Positions 15,717 through 57,985 of a stretch of 64,000 bases of DNA are shown here, one piece after another. Numbering within the stretch: the first letter of the stretch is position 1; every line of letters begins with the position of its first letter. The notes beneath the pieces were generated by a model. The model was not told where the DNA came from. It searched no databases and worked only from the letters and a program-made list of their open reading frames with translations. The stretch lies in the UHGV virus genome UHGV-0125682. The stretch is one strand, 5' to 3'. Position numbers and translations under genes: made by a program. Source of the DNA: a virus.

Positions 15717-16058
15717 GCTGTTTCTAAATCGGAATGTATGATCTGCATCATCGACTGAAGTCATCCATTGCTGAAATTTTTAGTTGATCTTCCATGTTTT
15801 CAGGCTTATATTCATGCCGTCGTAGCAAATTCTGCGACCGGGTTTGACAGCCTGAATACTTACGCGGACAACCGCACATTTCCGATATTGCGGTATTTTT
15901 GTGTCCGTAAAACCACGTTACGCCCGAATTATGGTGGGGCGTGATGGGGAGGCTTCGGCCTGCTGGTTTCGTAAGTGCCAGTCTGTCAACCCTGTCACGT
16001 CCTGCCACCTGTTTGACAGCGGGTCGCAGGTTGTTTATCAACTTACGAGGCCGTAACT

Positions 16059-16283
16059 ATGGTTAATGCCAATCCTTGCTCACGCCCAGAATTCATCTGG
16101 CGTTTCCACTCCCTGCAAAAACACTGCGATCACTTCGCAATTGCCGCAACCGAAAAAGAAGCCCGTTCTCTGATCCCTGATCAGTATGGTGTTCTTACTG
16201 GTCGTTTCTCTACTTCCCCACAACCAAACACTAATCCCTGGTATCGCAATATTACCAATCCCGGAATTGCGGAGGCACACTGA
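16059..16283 (+). CDS. Small protein paralogous to 56458-56673 (Icd-like position upstream of antirepressor)
   Basis: 74 aa; shared motif EFIWRF.S.QKH......AATE.EARS with the second copy; stop overlaps next start. Confidence 0.45.
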   Translation: MVNANPCSRPEFIWRFHSLQKHCDHFAIAATEKEARSLIPDQYGVLTGRFSTSPQPNTNPWYRNITNPGIAEAH

Positions 16284-16990
16284 TGGAAATCTGCATTCTT
16301 GAAAAGCCATCAATGACCAGCATTGAGATCGCGGAGCTGGTGGGAAGTCGTCACTCTGATGTTAAACGCAGCATCGAAAGACTTGTTGCTAAAGGAGTTA
16401 TCCAACATACGCCATTGGCTACAGTTGAGAATAATCAATCACTTAGCCCTAATAAATACACAAAAGCCTATTTCTTCGAAGGCGAGCAAGGCAAGCGCGA
16501 TAGTATTGTCGTCGTCGCGCAGCTCTCTCCCGAATTCACCGCCCGGCTGGTGGACCGCTGGCGCGAACTGGAAGAACAAGTACGCCAGCCGTTGACCGAA
16601 ATAGAGATGATCGCCGCAATGGCTGCAAATGCAGTTCAGCAGCAAAAGCGGCTTCATGTTGTTGAGTCAAAGGTTAGTCAGGTGGTAGAAACCGTCGAGC
16701 AAATCAAGAAGGGCAACATGCCAGATGGTTACATTGGCTACCGCCAGCTGGCTGCGAAATGTGGACTGACCGAAGCCAAATGCCGCAACCTGGTTAATGC
16801 TTACCGGATTCCCACCGATACACATGAGTTTTTAACTCCAGAGGGGGTATTGTCGCGTCGTTCCATCGTGGCCTTATCTCCCTTCATGAATGCTTTTAAC
16901 CGGATGATGTCGGAGGCTGAACACCGAGGAAAACGCTGGTATCACCCCAAAATGGGGCAATTCCAGGTGATCGGTTGGGGAGGTGAGTGA
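16283..16990 (+). CDS. Rha-family phage regulatory protein / antirepressor (Ant-like), lacking C-terminal domain
   Basis: MTSIEIAELVG.RH..VKR... Rha-type N-terminus; ~75% identical to 56673-57614 but stops early. Confidence 0.7.
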   Translation: MEICILEKPSMTSIEIAELVGSRHSDVKRSIERLVAKGVIQHTPLATVENNQSLSPNKYTKAYFFEGEQGKRDSIVVVAQLSPEFTARLVDRWRELEEQVRQPLTEIEMIAAMAANAVQQQKRLHVVESKVSQVVETVEQIKKGNMPDGYIGYRQLAAKCGLTEAKCRNLVNAYRIPTDTHEFLTPEGVLSRRSIVALSPFMNAFNRMMSEAEHRGKRWYHPKMGQFQVIGWGGE

Positions 16991-17187
16991 TGGACATCAT
17001 GCAGGCGGTAAAAAAAATCAGGGAAGGACAGGCTGAAGTGTGCCGCCGTAAAGCATGGAGTGTTGGTGTATGGGCCTGGCCTGATAATTACTCTACTACC
17101 GGATGGTTTTGTATTAATGGACTCCAGATCCGGGAAGTTGATTTATCGACGGCTGATATAGTCGGTAATGATTGGATCGTGACTTGA
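16987..17187 (+). CDS. Separate ORF matching the C-terminal domain of the intact antirepressor paralogue
   Basis: 66 aa ...CRRKAW.VGVWAWP... matches C-terminus of 56673-57614; different frame from 16283-16990. Confidence 0.4.
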   Translation: MMDIMQAVKKIREGQAEVCRRKAWSVGVWAWPDNYSTTGWFCINGLQIREVDLSTADIVGNDWIVT

Positions 17188-29124: not shown

Positions 29125-29201
29125 GATGGTGTAGCTCAGTAGGATAGAGCAGCAGCCTTCTAAGCTGTCGGTCGGTGGTTCGAATCCACCCACCATCGCC
29201 A
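29125..29201 (+). tRNA. tRNA-Arg (anticodon TCT)
   Basis: Cloverleaf folded by hand: acceptor GATGGTG/CACCATC, D-arm GCTC..GAGC, anticodon loop CTTCTAA, T-loop TTCGAAT, 3' GCCA. Confidence 0.85.
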
Positions 29202-29203
29202 AT

Positions 29204-29279
29204 GCCGGTTTAGCTCAGTTGGTAGAGCGCCTGCCTTGTAAGCAGGATGTCAGCGGTTCGAGTCCGTTAACCGGCACCA
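29204..29279 (+). tRNA. tRNA-Thr (anticodon TGT)
   Basis: Acceptor GCCGGTT/AACCGGC, D-loop AGTTGGTA, anticodon loop CTTGTAA, T-loop TTCGAGT, 3' ACCA. Confidence 0.85.
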
Positions 29280-29288
29280 ACACAACAG

Positions 29289-29365
29289 GTAAGGGTATTT
29301 TGCGACGTCGGAGATCGCCGTGCTTGGCAGAGGGTTCGAATCCCTACGAAGTACCCTTACCGTTG
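29289..29365 (+). other. tRNA-like remnant / hairpin 4 (10-bp stem around canonical T-loop GGGTTCGAATCCC)
   Basis: GGTAAGGGTA...TACCCTTACC stem; has T-arm but no D-arm or anticodon arm. Confidence 0.4.
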
Positions 29366-29508
29366 TGATGAAGTGCAGCTCTTTGAAGCAACCAGAAGAT
29401 AAGCATCTGGCTTCACAACATAAACCGCAGGAACGACCAATAAACGGTAGTCCGTATGGAGAACACCCCGTTGAGGAAGAGGCCTGGCCGGAACCGTAAC
29501 CGGCACTA

Positions 29509-29598
29509 CAACGTTGAGAACACTGGCGTAACGGGGTCATATCCCAATCTATGAATAAATGTTGCGTTGCAGCGTGACAACCAGTGTTCTCAACATTG
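29509..29598. other. Long hairpin 5 (18-bp stem, one mismatch, 54-nt loop)
   Basis: CAACGTTGAGAACACTGG ... CCAGTGTTCTCAACATTG. Confidence 0.4.
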
Positions 29599-29917
29599 TG
29601 GTGAATGCGCAGGCTGATGCGCGAAAGACATTGCAGCTATTGCGGAAAAGAGCTGTTCGGCGGGGCAATTAAACGCCCGTGAGAGTCTGAAATAACCGCA
29701 AGCCGGAGATCAGCACCGGTCGCCACAATAACGGGAGAGTAGGGAGCATGGTGCTCAAGCAGTCTTGAAAACCGTCCCATTGCGCACGCGGAACAGTTAA
29801 AACAATCCTCCTTAGTGGTTAAGTCAAACATCCCGGCGTTAATTGTTAACTGGTTAACGTCACCTGGAGGCACCAGGCACCGCAGCTTTTTTATTCGTTA
29901 AATAATGGAGTGAGAGG

Positions 29918-30154
29918 ATGCAGAACAATCCGAACAAATGTCGAACGCTATGGGTGCGGTTATATATTTATGTCGTCCTCTGTTTGATTGTGTCACTGGT
30001 TCTGTATGTTTGGCTTTTGCCAAATATGATCTCATCTGACAGCACAATACTTGTATTGTTGGGAGTCCTTCTCGCGCTCATTTACCCGGCTTTTGCAGTA
30101 GTCTTTTTTCGTGAAAAAACCAGGAAATTGATTAATGAAAAAAACGTTGATTAG
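29918..30154 (+). CDS. Small membrane protein
   Basis: 78 aa, two hydrophobic helices; overlaps start of next gene. Confidence 0.45.
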   Translation: MQNNPNKCRTLWVRLYIYVVLCLIVSLVLYVWLLPNMISSDSTILVLLGVLLALIYPAFAVVFFREKTRKLINEKNVD

Positions 30155-30962
30155 TGCAGCGATTATTTTTGGTTCTTTATGTCTGACCGGATGCGACCGG
30201 GTAGAACCAGGCAATGTAGGGATCAAAGTAAATAAGCTGGGGGATGATAAAGGTGTCGGCGAAGTAGTTGGCGTTGGTCGCTACTGGACAGGCTGGAACA
30301 CAGAAGTTTATATCTTCCCGACCTTTAAGCAAATGAAGACCTATGATGATCCGTTCAGCTTCCAAATGAGCGACGGGACAACAATTGGTTACCACATTGG
30401 TGTAGCTTACAAGGTTGATCCGGCAAAAGTCACAACTGTATTTCAGACCTACCGCAAAGGCGTGGATGACATTACCGACACCGACCTGCGCCAGAAGATT
30501 GCCGACGCACTTAACCGACTGGCCAGCAAAATGACCACCGACAAATTTATCGACGGTGGCAAGTCTGAACTACTGGATGCAGCTCTTAAAGACATCCAGG
30601 AAGAAATGACGCCCATCGGTATTCAGGTAATGAGCCTCTCATATGTGGGCAAGCCGGAGTACCCGCCAACCGTTATCGACAGCATTAATGCCAAAGTCAC
30701 GGCGAACCAGAAAACTCTGCAACGCGAGCAGGAAGTCAAGCAACGCGAAGCAGAAGCCAACATGCTGCGCGCAGAAGCTGCCGGACAGGCCGATGCCATT
30801 CGCACAAAAGCCCAGGCTGAAGCTGATGCCATTCGTTTACGCGGTGAGGCTCTGCGCCAGAACCCCGGCGTTATGGAGTTGGAAGCGATCAACAAATGGA
30901 ACGGAACGCGACCGCAGTATATGACCAGTAATACCGCTGTTCCGTTTGTTCCGGTGAAATAA
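30135..30962 (+). CDS. SPFH/band-7-like lipoprotein (P1 Plp-like position near tRNAs)
   Basis: Lipobox LSAAIIFGSLCLTGC; coiled-coil A/E/Q/R-rich C-terminal region. Confidence 0.6.
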   Translation: MKKTLISAAIIFGSLCLTGCDRVEPGNVGIKVNKLGDDKGVGEVVGVGRYWTGWNTEVYIFPTFKQMKTYDDPFSFQMSDGTTIGYHIGVAYKVDPAKVTTVFQTYRKGVDDITDTDLRQKIADALNRLASKMTTDKFIDGGKSELLDAALKDIQEEMTPIGIQVMSLSYVGKPEYPPTVIDSINAKVTANQKTLQREQEVKQREAEANMLRAEAAGQADAIRTKAQAEADAIRLRGEALRQNPGVMELEAINKWNGTRPQYMTSNTAVPFVPVK

Positions 30963-30975
30963 CCAAATAGAGAAC

Positions 30976-31107
30976 ATGATGGAATTTTGGACGTTTGCCG
31001 ACAAGAACCCTTGGTGGACATTTTTATTTCTGCTGGTGGTTGCATATGGGGTCGAGCAAGCAGCAAAAGCCTTACGCGGTCCTGGCAAAAAGCGTAAGCG
31101 GAATTAA
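30976..31107 (+). CDS. Small hydrophobic peptide (below ORF-track length cut-off)
   Basis: ~43 aa MMEFWTFADKNPWWTFLFLLVVAYG...KKRKRN; ends 10 nt before tRNA. Confidence 0.3.
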   Translation: MMEFWTFADKNPWWTFLFLLVVAYGVEQAAKALRGPGKKRKRN

Positions 31108-31116
31108 CAGTAATCT

Positions 31117-31192
31117 GGCCCTTTAGCTCAGTGGTTAGAGCTGGCGACTCATAATCGCACGGTCACCGGTTCAAGTCCGGTAGGGGCCACCA
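31117..31192 (+). tRNA. tRNA with CAT anticodon (Met or lysidine-modified Ile2)
   Basis: Acceptor GGCCCTT/AGGGGCC, D-loop AGTGGTTA, anticodon loop CTCATAA, T-loop TTCAAGT, 3' ACCA. Confidence 0.85.
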
Positions 31193-55067: not shown

Positions 55068-55646
55068 ATGCAGAAACAGAGCTATTGGGAGAAACAGAGA
55101 CAAAAAGCCATGCAAAAATTGGCTGACCCAGCCTGGCGAGAGGAACAAAGGGCAAAGCGCCTTCAACAAGCTCAACGCCAGCAGCAGCGAGCGAGAGAAA
55201 AAGCCGCATCGCCTGAATATCGGCAAAAGAAAATTGAAAAAGCAAAGCAATATGAACAGCGGAGAAAAGATAAAGCTGTATCCGCTCCGTCCAAAAAAAC
55301 ACGCACGTCACGCGGCCTGAAAGGCAGATCACTCACAGCCGATGAACGCCGGATACAGACCGCTATCGGTGCTCTCCCCTGCATTGCCTGCCATATTCAC
55401 GGGCAACATAGCCCAGTGGTATCCCTGCACCATATCTTCGGGAGAACGGCAGAGAACGCGCATAAATATGTCCTCCCTTTGTGTAAATGGCACCACCAGT
55501 ACGCAGCGCCAGCCGAGGTCAGAGAACAATATCCCTGGCTGGTCCCTGTTCATGCTGACGGAAAAATAGGCGGAAAAGCAGATTTCATGCGGCACAATGC
55601 CGATGAAATGACGTTGTATCAGATGGCGATTGAGTTGATAAATTAG
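55068..55646 (+). CDS. ref: HNH-type nuclease, P1 Ref-like
   Basis: 192 aa; K/R/Q-rich N-terminal ~95 aa then ...CIACHIHGQH...HHIFG...PLCKWHHQ. Confidence 0.5.
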   Translation: MQKQSYWEKQRQKAMQKLADPAWREEQRAKRLQQAQRQQQRAREKAASPEYRQKKIEKAKQYEQRRKDKAVSAPSKKTRTSRGLKGRSLTADERRIQTAIGALPCIACHIHGQHSPVVSLHHIFGRTAENAHKYVLPLCKWHHQYAAPAEVREQYPWLVPVHADGKIGGKADFMRHNADEMTLYQMAIELIN

Positions 55647-55657
55647 TTTTCTAACAT
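55640..55657 (-). promoter_or_regulatory. Operator-like motif (AAATTAGTTTTCTAACAT)
   Basis: Exact consensus instance just after ref stop. Confidence 0.45.
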
Positions 55658-55976
55658 TTTAAGTTGAATTGAAAAACTCTCCGATGTACATTCACTACCG
55701 ATTGGCACACCGGTCAACTTTTTGAGACAAACTGTTTAGTTTTTCGTATTATTGCCTCCGCCATACCTATGGCGGTGCAATATAGGTGGCTGAAAAGCCC
55801 CCGTTGACTCACGGTGTTCCAGCCTTTATTGCGCCGCCACCAGACCGTGGAACAGTCGATGGCGGCTCCGAAAGCAAGGAGTCACAACACTATGAACAAC
55901 TACAGTCTTTTCCCATCACTCGTCTTCCACCACTCACGCGATAATCTGCATTCTTTGCTCGCGCCGGGGGTGTCAA

Positions 55977-56147
55977 AATGACTGTTCGCTACCTCAACTT
56001 TCAAATCAAGAACATTACTGGCGGTTGCTATGACTGGTTTGTCACTCTCGGAAAAGAAGTGATCACCGGGAAGCTGGATGAAGTGAAAGCTAAAGCAATG
56101 GCCTACGCCTGCAAGCAAGTCAGGAAGAAATCCGCCAAAGCATAAAA
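55977..56147 (+). CDS. Possible small protein (below ORF-track cut-off)
   Basis: 56 aa MTVRYLNFQIKNITGGCYDWFVTLGKEVITGK...; terminator-like hairpin downstream. Confidence 0.25.
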
Positions 56148-56457
56148 CACTGACTGTTGCGCCCTGGCATTATCGTGGGGTATATTTCTACGGCACCTTA
56201 GAAAAACGGGTGCCGGGATTGGAACCCCGGATAATGCAAAAGGCGACACAGACGCCGAAAGCGTCTTTTTTTGTGTCATGCCATCGCACAGCCATACGTA
56301 GCGTTTAGCTCAGAGATCAATGGTAGTGCTGGCTGGGCTGCCGAAAGGCAGGCCGGTTCCCTTTTGCGCCGGTAGTTCCAACCCAGTCAGTGCTACCGCC
56401 ATTGAGATTGGAACCTCACGCGGTAGCTCCTTAAATTAGCAAAAGGAGGCTGCCAAT

Positions 56458-56673
56458 ATGGCTACTATCCCTACCCCAACTCATTCTGAATTTATCTGGC
56501 GTTTCTATTCCTGCCAAAAACACCTGTATATCTGCGTCATGGCTGCTACCGAAGCAGAAGCTCGTTCATACCTTCCTGAAGAACCCTGCATTTTTGCCGC
56601 ACGCTTCACTCTTGATGCGATGGAGATCCTAAATTACTGGAATCTGCCAATGAACTGCGTGGAGGTGCACTGA
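56458..56673 (+). CDS. Small protein paralogous to 16059-16283 (Icd-like position)
   Basis: 71 aa; RBS AAAGGAGG; stop overlaps next start. Confidence 0.45.
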   Translation: MATIPTPTHSEFIWRFYSCQKHLYICVMAATEAEARSYLPEEPCIFAARFTLDAMEILNYWNLPMNCVEVH

Positions 56674-57614
56674 TGAATCTGTCCATCTCTCAAAAAGCGA
56701 CAATGACCAGTATTGAGATCGCGGAACTGGTAGGTAAGCGTCATGATAATGTGAAGCGTACCATTGAAGTATTAACTAAAGGTGGTGTCATTCAATTTCC
56801 TCAAATTGAGGAAATTGAAAATAAACAATCAGTTGGCCCTCGTCGATTTTCCAAGGCTTACATATTTGAAGGCGAACAAGGAAAACGAGACAGCATCATT
56901 GTCGTCGCGCAGCTCTCTCCGGAATTCACCGCCCGGCTGGTGGACCGCTGGCGCGAACTGGAGAATGCCCGGGTACAGTTAAAATCAAAAGCCGAAATTC
57001 TGGCTGAAATGGCGCAAATGCATCTTGAGCATGAACGCCGGATCAACGCCGTAAATGCCCAGGTAGCCGAGGTATCAGCACAAGTATCGATGGTCGCTGA
57101 AACACTCGAGCAAATAAAGAAAGGCAATATTCCGGAAGGCTACATTGGCTACCGCCAGCTGGCGGCGAAATGTGGCCTGACTGAAGCCAAATGTCGCAAC
57201 CTGGTTAACGCTTTCCGGATTCCCACCGATACGCATGAGTTTTTAACTCCAGATGGTTTGCTTGCGCGACGCTCCATTGTGGCCCTGGTCCCCTTCCGGA
57301 AAGCCTTTAAGCAGGTGATGTCGGAGGCAGAACCACGCAATAAACGCTGGTATCATCCAAAGATGGGGATGTTTCAGGCAATCCACCATCCTGTGCCTGA
57401 AAGCCCAAAGGATAATCTGTCACTACATACCGTCAGAGAGAAGATCAGGACTGGATACGCAACAGTGTGTCGTCGTTCTTCCTGGCCTGAAGGTATATGG
57501 GTGTGGCCCGAAGGTGGATCACGAAAGCACTGTCGCACCATCCGTGACGGGAAAATCCATGCTATTGATTTAGCTCCAGAGGATGTTATTGCTATGGACT
57601 GGATTGTTAGTTAA
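56673..57614 (+). CDS. Rha-family phage regulatory protein / antirepressor (Ant-like), full length
   Basis: 313 aa; MTSIEIAELVGKRHDNVKR...; C-terminal domain present. Confidence 0.7.
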   Translation: MNLSISQKATMTSIEIAELVGKRHDNVKRTIEVLTKGGVIQFPQIEEIENKQSVGPRRFSKAYIFEGEQGKRDSIIVVAQLSPEFTARLVDRWRELENARVQLKSKAEILAEMAQMHLEHERRINAVNAQVAEVSAQVSMVAETLEQIKKGNIPEGYIGYRQLAAKCGLTEAKCRNLVNAFRIPTDTHEFLTPDGLLARRSIVALVPFRKAFKQVMSEAEPRNKRWYHPKMGMFQAIHHPVPESPKDNLSLHTVREKIRTGYATVCRRSSWPEGIWVWPEGGSRKHCRTIRDGKIHAIDLAPEDVIAMDWIVS

Positions 57615-57673
57615 ATGCTGCATCCCCGGCGACGCCGGGGATTTAACTGCCAAATAATCGGATTATCCGCACG

Positions 57674-57985
57674 ATGAAAAAAATAGATTTCACTTATTCT
57701 GCCGCCACACTTGAGCGGCGCTTCACCCTCATTAGAGAGTTGGAACTGTCAAAAGTCTGGTATCAAATCCTACTGGATGAAGAGTTTTCACTGATGGTTA
57801 TAGCAGAAAAATTGGCTATGCCTAATGATCGGCACAAGGTCATAGCCAGCCTCGATCTGGTGACAAACAGATACTGGGAAACAGAGGAACTACATGAGGC
57901 GGGAGTAATTCGTGACCTGATGGAGAATTCCGTTCCCCGCCGCTATCGTGCAGGGAACGGCATCTCCGTGGTTAAAGGTGTTTAA
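57674..57985 (+). CDS. Hypothetical protein
   Basis: 103 aa. Confidence 0.45.
   Translation: MKKIDFTYSAATLERRFTLIRELELSKVWYQILLDEEFSLMVIAEKLAMPNDRHKVIASLDLVTNRYWETEELHEAGVIRDLMENSVPRRYRAGNGISVVKGV

Follow-up and report, generated by a model that had tools for sequence, protein, structure and literature searches.

The immI region of phages P1 and P7 encodes a C4 RNA that carries two recognition elements, a' in a junction and b' in the loop of hairpin 2. Their targets are arranged with a2 just 3' of C4 and b2 on the Shine-Dalgarno (SD) sequence of icd, copies of both (a1 and b1) are present upstream, the start of ant overlaps the stop of icd, and the a and b specificities vary between phages. 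In the isrK-orf45-anrP-isrJ locus of Gifsy-1 (Salmonella; Hershko-Shalev et al. 2016, PMC4825925) the sRNA IsrK ends at a terminator that is subject to read-through, a C4-class RNA complementary to IsrK (STnc1160/'orf45') lies directly downstream, and both precede an antirepressor gene that they control. Compensatory mutagenesis showed that IsrK pairs with the RNA downstream of it, IsrK provided in trans increased translation of the antirepressor by a factor of more than 100, and STnc1160 was detected as a processed RNA of about 80 nt (PMC4825925). The short and read-through isoforms of IsrK, its binding of Hfq and its activation of antirepressor translation in trans are known only for Gifsy-1 (PMC4825925). 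Stx-converting and related lambdoid phages (such as LC710660 and phiP27) carry the same two RNAs in the same order in isrK-C4-Rha modules, which are found in 129 phage records, and both RNAs are already annotated in LC710660. In P4, the CI RNA is a processed stable RNA that lies between complementary sites (seqA and seqC) on one transcript and acts via transcription termination.

The window (the whole stretch of DNA analysed, 64,000 nt) is a D6-like phage-plasmid with 99.8% identity to an E. coli plasmid. The leader of its second icd/antirepressor pair (module 2; Table 1) contains two small-RNA genes that are already catalogued, one for IsrK and one for a C4 antisense RNA of the P1 type. Module 2 is an ordinary element and the feature is already known, IsrK and C4 both being Rfam families; the presence of a second c4/icd region in D6-like plasmids was remarked on in 2019. 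The direct orthologue is the orf83/orf82 region of phage D6 and of D6-like plasmids (pYU39_89); D6 has 92% identity to the window across the finding and 97% across the RNA region. The significance is mainly one of annotation, as the two RNA genes and their target sites account for a leader that had appeared to be 'gene-less'.

Table 1. Features of module 2 and of the sequence directly upstream, in window coordinates.
Feature	Position	Strand	Evidence and remarks
Third, sub-threshold C4-like RNA	55765-55844	+	RF01695, 40.2 bits (gathering score 45), E 1.1e-5
Candidate a2 of third C4-like RNA, TGGAACA	55848-55854	+	
Candidate target of third C4-like RNA, GGAGTCA	55878-55884	+	On SD of 29-codon ORF
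29-codon ORF	55893-55981	+	Coupled via ATGA overlap to 55-aa ORF
55-aa ORF	55978-56145	+	
IsrK promoter-like element (putative)	56157-56186	+	Read from sequence; -35 TTGCGC 56157-56162, 18-nt spacer, -10 TATATT 56181-56186; ends 6 nt before IsrK start
IsrK sRNA gene	56193-56271	+	RF01394, 62.5 bits (gathering score 50), full model 1-77
a1 target copy, TTGGAAC	56219-56225	+	IsrK hairpin 2 loop; exact 7-nt complement of a'
b1 target copy, GCAAAAGG	56236-56243	+	IsrK linker; exact 8-nt complement of b'
IsrK intrinsic terminator, AGACGC-CGAAA-GCGTCT and T-run	56250-56273	+	Hairpin 56250-56266; terminator scan; 3' hairpin of IsrK model
IsrK-C4 spacer and predicted C4-precursor 5' leader	56272-56321	+	Contains TAGCTCAG (56306-56313)
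C4 antisense RNA gene (Rfam span)	56316-56403	+	RF01695, 76.7 bits (gathering score 45), full model 1-87
39-codon ORF	56320-56439	+	ORF list; starts at AUG inside C4 5' end; Pfam Phage_ASH, 33 bits (cut-off 26)
b', CCUUUUGC	56360-56367	+	C4 hairpin 2 loop
a', GUUCCAA	56375-56381	+	C4 single-stranded junction
a2 target, TTGGAAC	56408-56414	+	5 nt past Rfam C4 span; exact 7-nt complement of a'
GCGGTAGC	56420-56427	+	Complementary to 3' strand of C4 basal stem, 56392-56399
b2 target, GCAAAAGG	56439-56446	+	Overlaps icd SD AAGGAGG (56442-56448); exact 8-nt complement of b'
icd-like gene, 71 aa	56458-56673	+	NCBIfam NF033153, 49.4 bits (cut-off 25); phrog_1426, E 3.7e-41
Antirepressor gene (ant), 313 aa, Rha-type N-terminus	56673-57614	+	phrog_63 'anti-repressor Ant', E 1.8e-60, residues 2-313; Pfam Phage_pRha (PF09669), 37.3 bits (cut-off 29.9)
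GC-rich hairpin CCCCGGC-GAC-GCCGGGG, weak T tract	57624-57640	+	After ant; read from sequence

An earlier note, made from the sequence alone, had described a second Icd-like/antirepressor pair behind a leader of about 180 bp, and had proposed a candidate c4-type antisense RNA that an Rfam covariance search could check. Both ORFs were confirmed by matches in NCBIfam, PHROG and Pfam, about 185 nt lie between the hairpin and the icd ATG, and C4 and IsrK both scored above their gathering thresholds. The candidate antisense RNA was borne out by the Rfam match, by compensatory support for its fold and by the complementarity, with covariation, of its loops to the icd ribosome-binding region. The terminator in that note is present with its hairpin and T-run, but it does not close a gene upstream and instead belongs to IsrK as its intrinsic terminator. 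This second RNA gene, which owns the terminator and the upstream a1/b1 copies, had been missed.

Module 2 shares with P1/P7 immI the order of the parts, the C4 fold, the placement of a' and b' and of all target copies, and the icd-ant overlap (TGATG). It differs in its leader, which fits the IsrK model and carries a strong intrinsic terminator, in its a/b sequences, and in encoding a Rha-type antirepressor instead of Ant1/Ant2. A search of the window for an Oc4-like, P1-type C1 operator (ATTGCTCTAATAAATTT), allowing up to 3 mismatches, gave nothing, which is neutral on repressor control. The succession of IsrK, terminator and C4-class RNA ahead of an antirepressor gene is that of Gifsy-1, but module 2 has an icd-like gene between C4 and the antirepressor, resides on a plasmid prophage, and its C4-spanning ORF ends 18 nt before the next start codon, without overlapping it; an antQ-type output, unlike for Gifsy-1, is not known for D6-like elements. 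The SD and first codons of the downstream gene (GGAGGCTGCCAnnATGGCTAC) are conserved between module 2 and the isrK-C4-Rha modules, whereas in the latter the Rha-type regulator follows C4 directly without icd, the spacer is 24 nt and not 44 nt, and the a/b specificities differ.

The Icd-like protein of module 2 matched no Pfam model, and for the last 60 residues of Ant there was no Pfam domain, the only match being PHROG 7385 (function not assigned). The hairpin after ant is a possible end of the operon; the terminator scan made no call there. The other module of the window (module 1, 15806-17187) is the true P1 immI homologue, 85% identical to P1, and its leader passes the c4-a1b1 model with 55.9 bits. 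The Icd proteins of the two modules are 45% identical and the Ant proteins 65%. The two layers of antirepressor control suggested previously are supported by this anatomy, that is, by two complete modules with different a/b specificities.

IsrK comprises two hairpins, the second of which presents a1 in its loop, followed by a single-stranded linker with b1 and the terminator. Ten homologous loci, with 7 a-types and 6 b-types, were aligned for covariation analysis (alignment A1); a copy on a Salmonella plasmid (pSa1423-90k) was excluded due to many indels in the RNA genes, possibly sequencing errors. The IsrK stems were 94.7% paired and nearly invariant, and therefore show little covariation, while a1 and b1 vary. 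The promoter-like element upstream was not called by a simple promoter scanner, but TTGnnn/TAnnnT hexamers occupy the same columns in all 10 loci and align with the P1 promoter P1c4 (formerly P51b; alignment A4). The c4-a1b1 motif (Rfam RF03163) gave a weak match at 56180-56233, which overlaps the 5' part of IsrK, with 22.4 bits against a gathering score of 46.7 (E 0.009). In alignment IsrK is collinear with the a1b1 leader of P1/P7; it would work like that leader and aligns with it, yet is filed outside the RF03163 model.

The mature C4 is predicted at 56322-56400 (79 nt), with ends placed by alignment with the 77-nt c4 of the annotated P1 record. It folds into a long basal stem around two hairpins, and its 27 pairs were paired in 100% of cells across the 10 loci, with compensatory changes in 12 of them; controls in which the pairing was slid were 27-52% paired. 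The stretch GCGGTAGC between a2 and b2 pairs with the basal stem in 95% of cells in the same loci, with 3 compensatory pairs, and would give the unprocessed transcript an alternative hairpin with a2 in its loop.

Complementary sequences near the icd ribosome-binding site, a further check named in the earlier note, were found as the exact 7- and 8-nt matches a2 and b2, the latter on the SD. Duplex prediction with RNAduplex between the whole C4 and its flanks gave full-length structures that could not be interpreted, and was replaced by a listing of exact complements and by duplexes of the short elements. All four exact matches (a'/b' with a1/b1 and a2/b2) occurred together in none of 20,000 shuffles. 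Across the 10 loci, a'/b' were 99.3% paired with a1/b1 (compensatory changes in 8 of 15 pairs) and 100% paired with a2/b2 (10 of 15); for b'/b1 alone 5 of 8 pairs were compensatory and for a'/a2 5 of 7. The three copies thus covary with 99-100% pairing against 23-51% in slid controls, and b2 lies exactly on the icd SD at every locus. The a specificity of D6 differs from that of the window at all three sites: despite 97% identity, a1, a' and a2 differ in concert, with TTGGAAC/GTTCCAA in the window and TTGAGAC/GTCTCAA in D6 (a1 TTGAGAC, a' GUCUCAA). Modules 1 and 2 do not share their a/b specificities, and in duplex prediction cognate pairs were preferred to cross-module pairs. The a/b code would set which antirepressor switch answers which RNA.

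The explanation which we prefer, with a probability of about 0.8, is that module 2 is an immI-type RNA switch on the icd-ant operon of a D6-like phage-plasmid. We infer the following course from the arrangement of its parts. A promoter just upstream of 56193 would drive transcription, and most transcripts would stop at the IsrK terminator, yielding an IsrK sRNA of about 80 nt; if this terminator is efficient, C4 would be made only via read-through, and the direction of control would hinge on the ratio of IsrK to C4. From read-through transcripts, by homology with P1, C4 would be excised as a stable species some 79 nt long, its 5' end being made by RNase P. On the icd-ant mRNA, a2 would then be bound by its junction a' and b2 by its hairpin loop b', and as b2 covers the icd SD, icd would not be translated. 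Neither would ant, which starts on the icd stop codon; in P1 the corresponding loss works via translational coupling and polarity. The a and b sequences would set an immunity specificity that differs from that of the P1-like module 1.

Since IsrK holds second copies of both targets, in a hairpin loop (a1) and the linker (b1), it would be the cognate partner of C4, and it may serve either as a decoy that frees a2 and b2 or as a cis element that locks the read-through transcript, the latter having been shown for Gifsy-1. The compensatory mutants of Gifsy-1 map to the elements equivalent to a1/b1 of IsrK and a'/b' of C4. In that system constitutive STnc1160 failed to counteract IsrK, growth arrest being more pronounced, and mutating the a1 region in cis led to derepression and not to tighter control (PMC4825925); neither result fits a pure decoy model.

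A Gifsy-1-type cis switch, which is compatible with the immI-type explanation, we regard as possible but rather doubtful. Here the regulated step would be translation of the 39-codon ORF, the positional equivalent of orf45 ('Ash'): the IsrK part of the read-through transcript would fold on the C4 region, IsrK in trans would open this fold, and ribosomes crossing C4 would switch on the downstream genes, with processed C4 a minor factor as trans repressor. This is a published model with mutational support at a homologous locus, and the match of the ORF to Phage_ASH accords with it. At each of the 10 loci the reading frame that begins with the C4 AUG stays open, and translation through C4 may therefore belong to the mechanism; in 5 loci this frame is fused to the downstream gene, and in the other five it ends after 37 or 39 codons. 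In module 2, however, it stops 18 nt short of the icd ATG without overlap, its end differs between lineages, and no conserved SD precedes its AUG in the 10 loci. The cis switch also leaves unexplained why a2/b2 covary with a'/b', fully paired and with b2 on the icd SD, which is the geometry of repression in P1.

A P4-type action, in which C4 on pairing with its flanking sites would mainly cause premature termination of transcription and not a block of translation, as CI RNA does with seqA and seqC, is unlikely. C4 does share Rfam clan CL00128 with c4-a1b1, the target copy upstream of C4 adjoins a terminator, an analogy between IsrK and P4 seqA was drawn by Hershko-Shalev et al. (PMC4825925), and a stable RNA between complementary sites on one transcript is common to P4 and module 2 (its processing being predicted for the latter). 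Nevertheless, b2 occupies a ribosome-binding site and at each locus falls exactly on the icd SD, as in P1, where according to the annotated record the translational block is primary, and a plus-strand terminator scan from a2/b2 to ant gave no candidate except a weak one at 57454.

It is very improbable that module 2 merely duplicates the P1-like immI module and is inert or in decay, even if it is missing from some D6-like plasmids and its pSa1423-90k copy has indels and scores poorly. In the window the two ORFs are intact, as are the five RNA elements, the element is present in 449 plasmid records, and the concerted three-site change relative to D6 implies continued selection.

The central c4 inference of the earlier note is correct, and its tRNA-like reasoning is wrong. 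The string TAGCTCAGAGATCAATGGTAG is present at 56306-56326, but 16 of its 21 bases precede the 5' end predicted for mature C4. The 8-mer TAGCTCAG within it, read as part of a D-arm, is outside the mature RNA. It occurs four times on the plus strand of the window, three times in real tRNAs and once in this leader, and in 64 kb chance alone would give about one non-tRNA copy of an 8-mer per strand. The copy in the leader is part of a lineage-specific insertion of 21 nt (A1 columns 149-169) that is confined to the D6/RCS47/JL22 group, the homologues in Stx phages and phiP27 being without it, and its position reads TAGCTCCAAG in D6 and TAGCTCCGAA in RCS47. Although TAGCTCAG matches the start of a tRNA D-arm and P1 c4 is an RNase P substrate, a tRNA-derived or tRNA-like leader can be dismissed almost entirely, as the motif is not conserved, ARAGORN found no tRNA at the string and the Rfam tRNA model (RF00005) found nothing at E<=1 within 55600-57750.

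Upstream of IsrK lies a third C4-like RNA below the gathering score, which the earlier note missed though it is inside its coordinates. It has a fold z-score of -4.79 and is more than 93% conserved against roughly 55% for its upstream flank in plasmids of E. fergusonii and S. dysenteriae, in which an intact Icd-like gene follows it. The sequences TGGCACA and GAGACAA were considered as upstream a1/b1-like copies for this RNA and rejected: each has a central mismatch, GAGACA coincides with a predicted -35, and both are probably promoter sequence. Its a-site core, GUUCCA, is common to module 2 in the window but not in D6.

More tentatively, and with a probability somewhat below even, IsrK and the P1 a1b1 leader may be one homologous element. 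The immI loci of P1 type and the IsrK loci of Gifsy type would then make up a single family of RNA circuits with three parts (a leader sRNA with target mimics, C4, and the mRNA targets), in which specificity evolves by concerted three-site change. The terminated leader sRNA might be a diffusible, specificity-matched anti-antisense signal, able to derepress an antirepressor on any co-resident element with the same a/b code, and this D6-like plasmid would hold three circuits, two of them orthogonal. If this is so, the shared GUUCCA core would allow cross-talk between the third C4-like RNA and module 2 in the window and not in D6. Heteroimmunity, and cross-induction among prophages residing together, are the questions on which the concerted difference from D6 at three sites has a bearing, as has the occurrence of two or three circuits on one plasmid prophage. 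That IsrK aligns with the P1 leader also joins the P1 immI and Gifsy-1 IsrK literatures, which are treated separately in the literature searched.

A 9-nt sequence just upstream of the IsrK -35, CACTGACTG (56148-56156), complements the 3' arm of C4 and was treated as chance, since in D6 both sides are altered and the pairing is lost. The RNA genes also expose two protein annotations as probably spurious: the 'ash family protein' annotated by PGAP over C4 (in NZ_CP066033), and orf84 of D6, which runs on the minus strand across IsrK and C4 in a record with no RNA annotated there, and is broken in the window.

The leader of the second icd/ant module contains two catalogued RNA genes, isrK and C4, both of which scored above their gathering scores in the Rfam covariance search that the earlier note had proposed. 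Alignment with the annotated 77-nt P1 c4 predicts that the mature C4 would span 56322-56400. A search for complementary targets near the icd ribosome binding site, also suggested there, found exact complements of both C4 antisense elements (a' and b', with targets a1/b1 upstream and a2/b2 downstream, named by P1 nomenclature), and b2 shares bases with the icd Shine-Dalgarno sequence AAGGAGG, 9 nt upstream of the ATG. The upstream pair is within IsrK, where a1 lies in the second-hairpin loop and b1 in the single-stranded linker. All four matches occurred jointly in none of 20,000 flank shuffles. With the C4 match and this complementarity, the proposal of a c4-type antisense RNA was right, though it was reached for the wrong reason.

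Features of the second module, its surroundings and related loci
Feature	Coordinates	Strand	Evidence or remark
Module 1	15806-17187		c4-a1b1 motif 15806-15858, C4 15927-16012, icd, ant
Ref-type RecA-dependent nuclease gene	55068-55646	as RNA cluster	immediately upstream, as in D6; Pfam RecA_dep_nuc, E 4.6e-35
Third C4-like RNA	55765-55844		40.2 bits, below gathering score 45; E 1.1e-5
Its candidate targets	55848-55854, 55878-55884		latter on small-ORF Shine-Dalgarno
29-codon ORF	55893-55981		after candidate targets; coupled (ATGA) to next ORF
Conserved 55-aa ORF	55978-56145		phrog_7786
isrK	56193-56271	+	Rfam, 62.5 bits (gathering score 50)
C4 antisense RNA	56316-56403	+	Rfam, 76.7 bits (gathering score 45)
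b' CCTTTTGC	56360-56367		C4 hairpin-2 loop; exact complement of GCAAAAGG at 56236-56243 and 56439-56446
a' GTTCCAA	56375-56381		C4 junction; exact complement of TTGGAAC at 56219-56225 and 56408-56414
Icd-like ORF	56458-56673		NCBIfam NF033153, 49.4 bits (cut-off 25)
ant, 313 aa	56673-57614		PHROG 63 'anti-repressor Ant' (E 1.8e-60); Pfam Phage_pRha
sRNA-Xcc1 matches (Stx-type phage loci)	L006 2544-2627; L008 2523-2606; L011 2516-2599; L012 2515-2598

The observation behind that proposal was largely real. Both protein-coding calls, Icd-like and antirepressor, are borne out by family matches, and the terminator hairpin exists (AGACGC-CGAAA-GCGTCT plus T-run, 56250-56273, +) but belongs to IsrK as its 3' hairpin. 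The 21-mer quoted as a D-arm is present at 56306-56326 (+), with 16 of its 21 bases in the leader that would be removed from the predicted mature C4; its tRNA-like character did not survive. ARAGORN called no tRNA in the leader, its only calls being three at 29125-31192, and a permissive Rfam scan of 55600-57750 gave no tRNA match at E<=1. Three of the four copies of TAGCTCAG on this strand are inside those tRNAs, D6 and RCS47 have TAGCTCCAAG and TAGCTCCGAA, respectively, at the motif position, and in the alignment the motif lies in a 21-nt insertion missing from the Stx-phage and phiP27 homologues. The tRNA-like reading was rejected on the negative searches and the variable motif.

The element is already known, as it belongs to catalogued families and a published phage lineage; the modest additions here are a three-way covariation that places a1/b1 in IsrK, the concerted way in which specificity differs between the window and D6, and the third C4-like RNA. 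The interval 55640-57650 matches Escherichia phage D6 over its full length (92.1% identity), 56150-57650 shares 99.8% identity with an E. coli plasmid (449 plasmid records matched), and 129 phage records, chiefly of Stx-converting phages, have the isrK-C4 pair. The D6 annotation of the region has Icd-like and Ant genes, flanked by ref on the upstream side and by a pmgF-like gene on the downstream side, and no RNA genes. It also has orf84, a 99-codon minus-strand ORF over IsrK and C4 (L001 3464-3763), which is probably spurious because the equivalent in the window (56103-56402, minus) is split into three short ORFs.

Covariation was examined in ten distinct loci, which represent seven a-types and six b-types. 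All cells of the C4 fold are paired (100%, against 27-52% in slid controls), and both partners have changed in 12 of its 27 pairs. Pairing of a'/b' with a1/b1 holds in 99.3% of cells, 8 of 15 pairs being compensatory (slid controls 32-51%), and with a2/b2 in 100%, with 10 of 15 compensatory (slid controls 23-50%). The IsrK stems are near-invariant and a1 and b1 vary, which is how a specificity element is expected to behave. Identity between the window and D6 is 97% across the RNA stretch, yet a1, a' and a2 differ in concert (TTGGAAC/GTTCCAA/TTGGAAC versus TTGAGAC/GTCTCAA/TTGAGAC), the same kind of difference as between P1 and P7. In the P1-like phage vB_EcoM-673R5 (L004), C4 is above threshold (2545-2620); its IsrK-like leader is not reported at Rfam's gathering score and still has matching a1/b1, with one G-U pair per duplex.

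Aligned with the P1, P7 and module-1 a1b1 leaders, IsrK is collinear through promoter hexamers, first hairpin, CGGG-a1-CC hairpin, b1, and a hairpin then TTTTTGTGTC. The Rfam c4-a1b1 model matches weakly at 56180-56233, overlapping the 5' part of IsrK (22.4 bits, E 0.009). In Gifsy-1, compensatory mutagenesis showed that IsrK G28/G31 pair with 'orf45' C162/C159, STnc1160 was observed as a processed RNA of ~80 nt, and P4 CI/seqA was pointed out as an analogy (PMC4825925); by position, the paired bases lie within the a1 and a' elements. Apart from that study, the papers searched give IsrK and c4 as separate systems. In Stx-type phages the isrK-C4-Rha module is followed ~0.8 kb further on by an sRNA-Xcc1 family match (79.6 bits), which precedes the antitermination gene; no such match occurs in the window.

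With parts, folds, complementarity and covariation demonstrated, a mechanism can be proposed by analogy with P1 and Gifsy-1. Transcription past the IsrK terminator would give a precursor from which C4 is cut out; C4 would pair with a2/b2 and block icd translation, and ant would be silenced too because its ATG overlaps the icd stop (TGATG, 56671-56675). IsrK, with mimics of both targets, may titrate C4, or pair in cis and trans, switching the transcript on. A pure decoy role is at odds with the Gifsy-1 data (PMC4825925). Translation through C4 stays a live alternative or addition to this P1-type mechanism, since the reading frame beginning at the AUG within C4 stays open in each of the ten loci. 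In the window the 39-codon ORF over C4 (56320-56439, +), the positional equivalent of Gifsy-1 orf45, is called 'ash family protein' by PGAP and passes Pfam Phage_ASH (33 bits versus 26), which suggests that the 'ash' family picks up translated C4-class RNA genes. The C4 basal stem has a 3' strand (56392-56399) that can also pair with 56420-56427, between a2 and b2 (95% paired in the ten loci, three compensatory pairs); in the unprocessed transcript a2 would then sit in a hairpin loop.

Module 1 is the true P1 immI homologue (85% identity to P1, 100% to D6); its a site is TTGACAG, which it shares with P1, and its b site is ACTTACG. The target pairs of each module are found only beside their own C4, and predicted duplexes favour cognate over cross-module partners. 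Icd1 and Icd2 are 45% identical and Ant1 and Ant2 65%. The last ~60 residues of the module-2 Ant (~254-312; 57430-57614) match PHROG 7385, with no Pfam match; in module 1 this part is a separate 66-aa ORF (16987-17187) overlapping the ant end (41% identity), a gene fusion or fission between modules.

In D6-like plasmids from E. fergusonii and S. dysenteriae, 81 nt (L014 3078-3158) take the place of module 2 and the pmgF-like ORF (56146-57978), and in the P1-like phages RCS47 and JL22 isrK-C4-icd lies between pacB and c1, joined to a different antirepressor (L002/L003 2501-2960). Judged from these arrangements, module 2 behaves as a mobile cassette. The Shine-Dalgarno and first codons (GGAGGCTGCCAnnATGGCTAC..., MATIP/MATVP; 56442-56480 and the corresponding position in L005, L007 and L009-L011) are conserved whichever gene they belong to, Icd-like as in D6 and P1-like elements or a Rha-type regulator as in Stx phages and phiP27, and thus the boundary of the exchangeable RNA cassette falls inside the coding start.

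Upstream of module 2, and within the interval singled out by the earlier note, is the third C4-like RNA, a candidate without covariation support because its loops are invariant in the available homologues. It is well folded (z-score -4.79), and its conservation in the E. fergusonii and S. dysenteriae plasmids, where an intact Icd-like gene follows it, is >93% versus ~55% in the upstream flank. Its a' has GUUCCA in common with the module-2 a' of the window, not of D6. A segment like 56420-56427 also lies 3' of this RNA (GGCGGC, 55861-55866).
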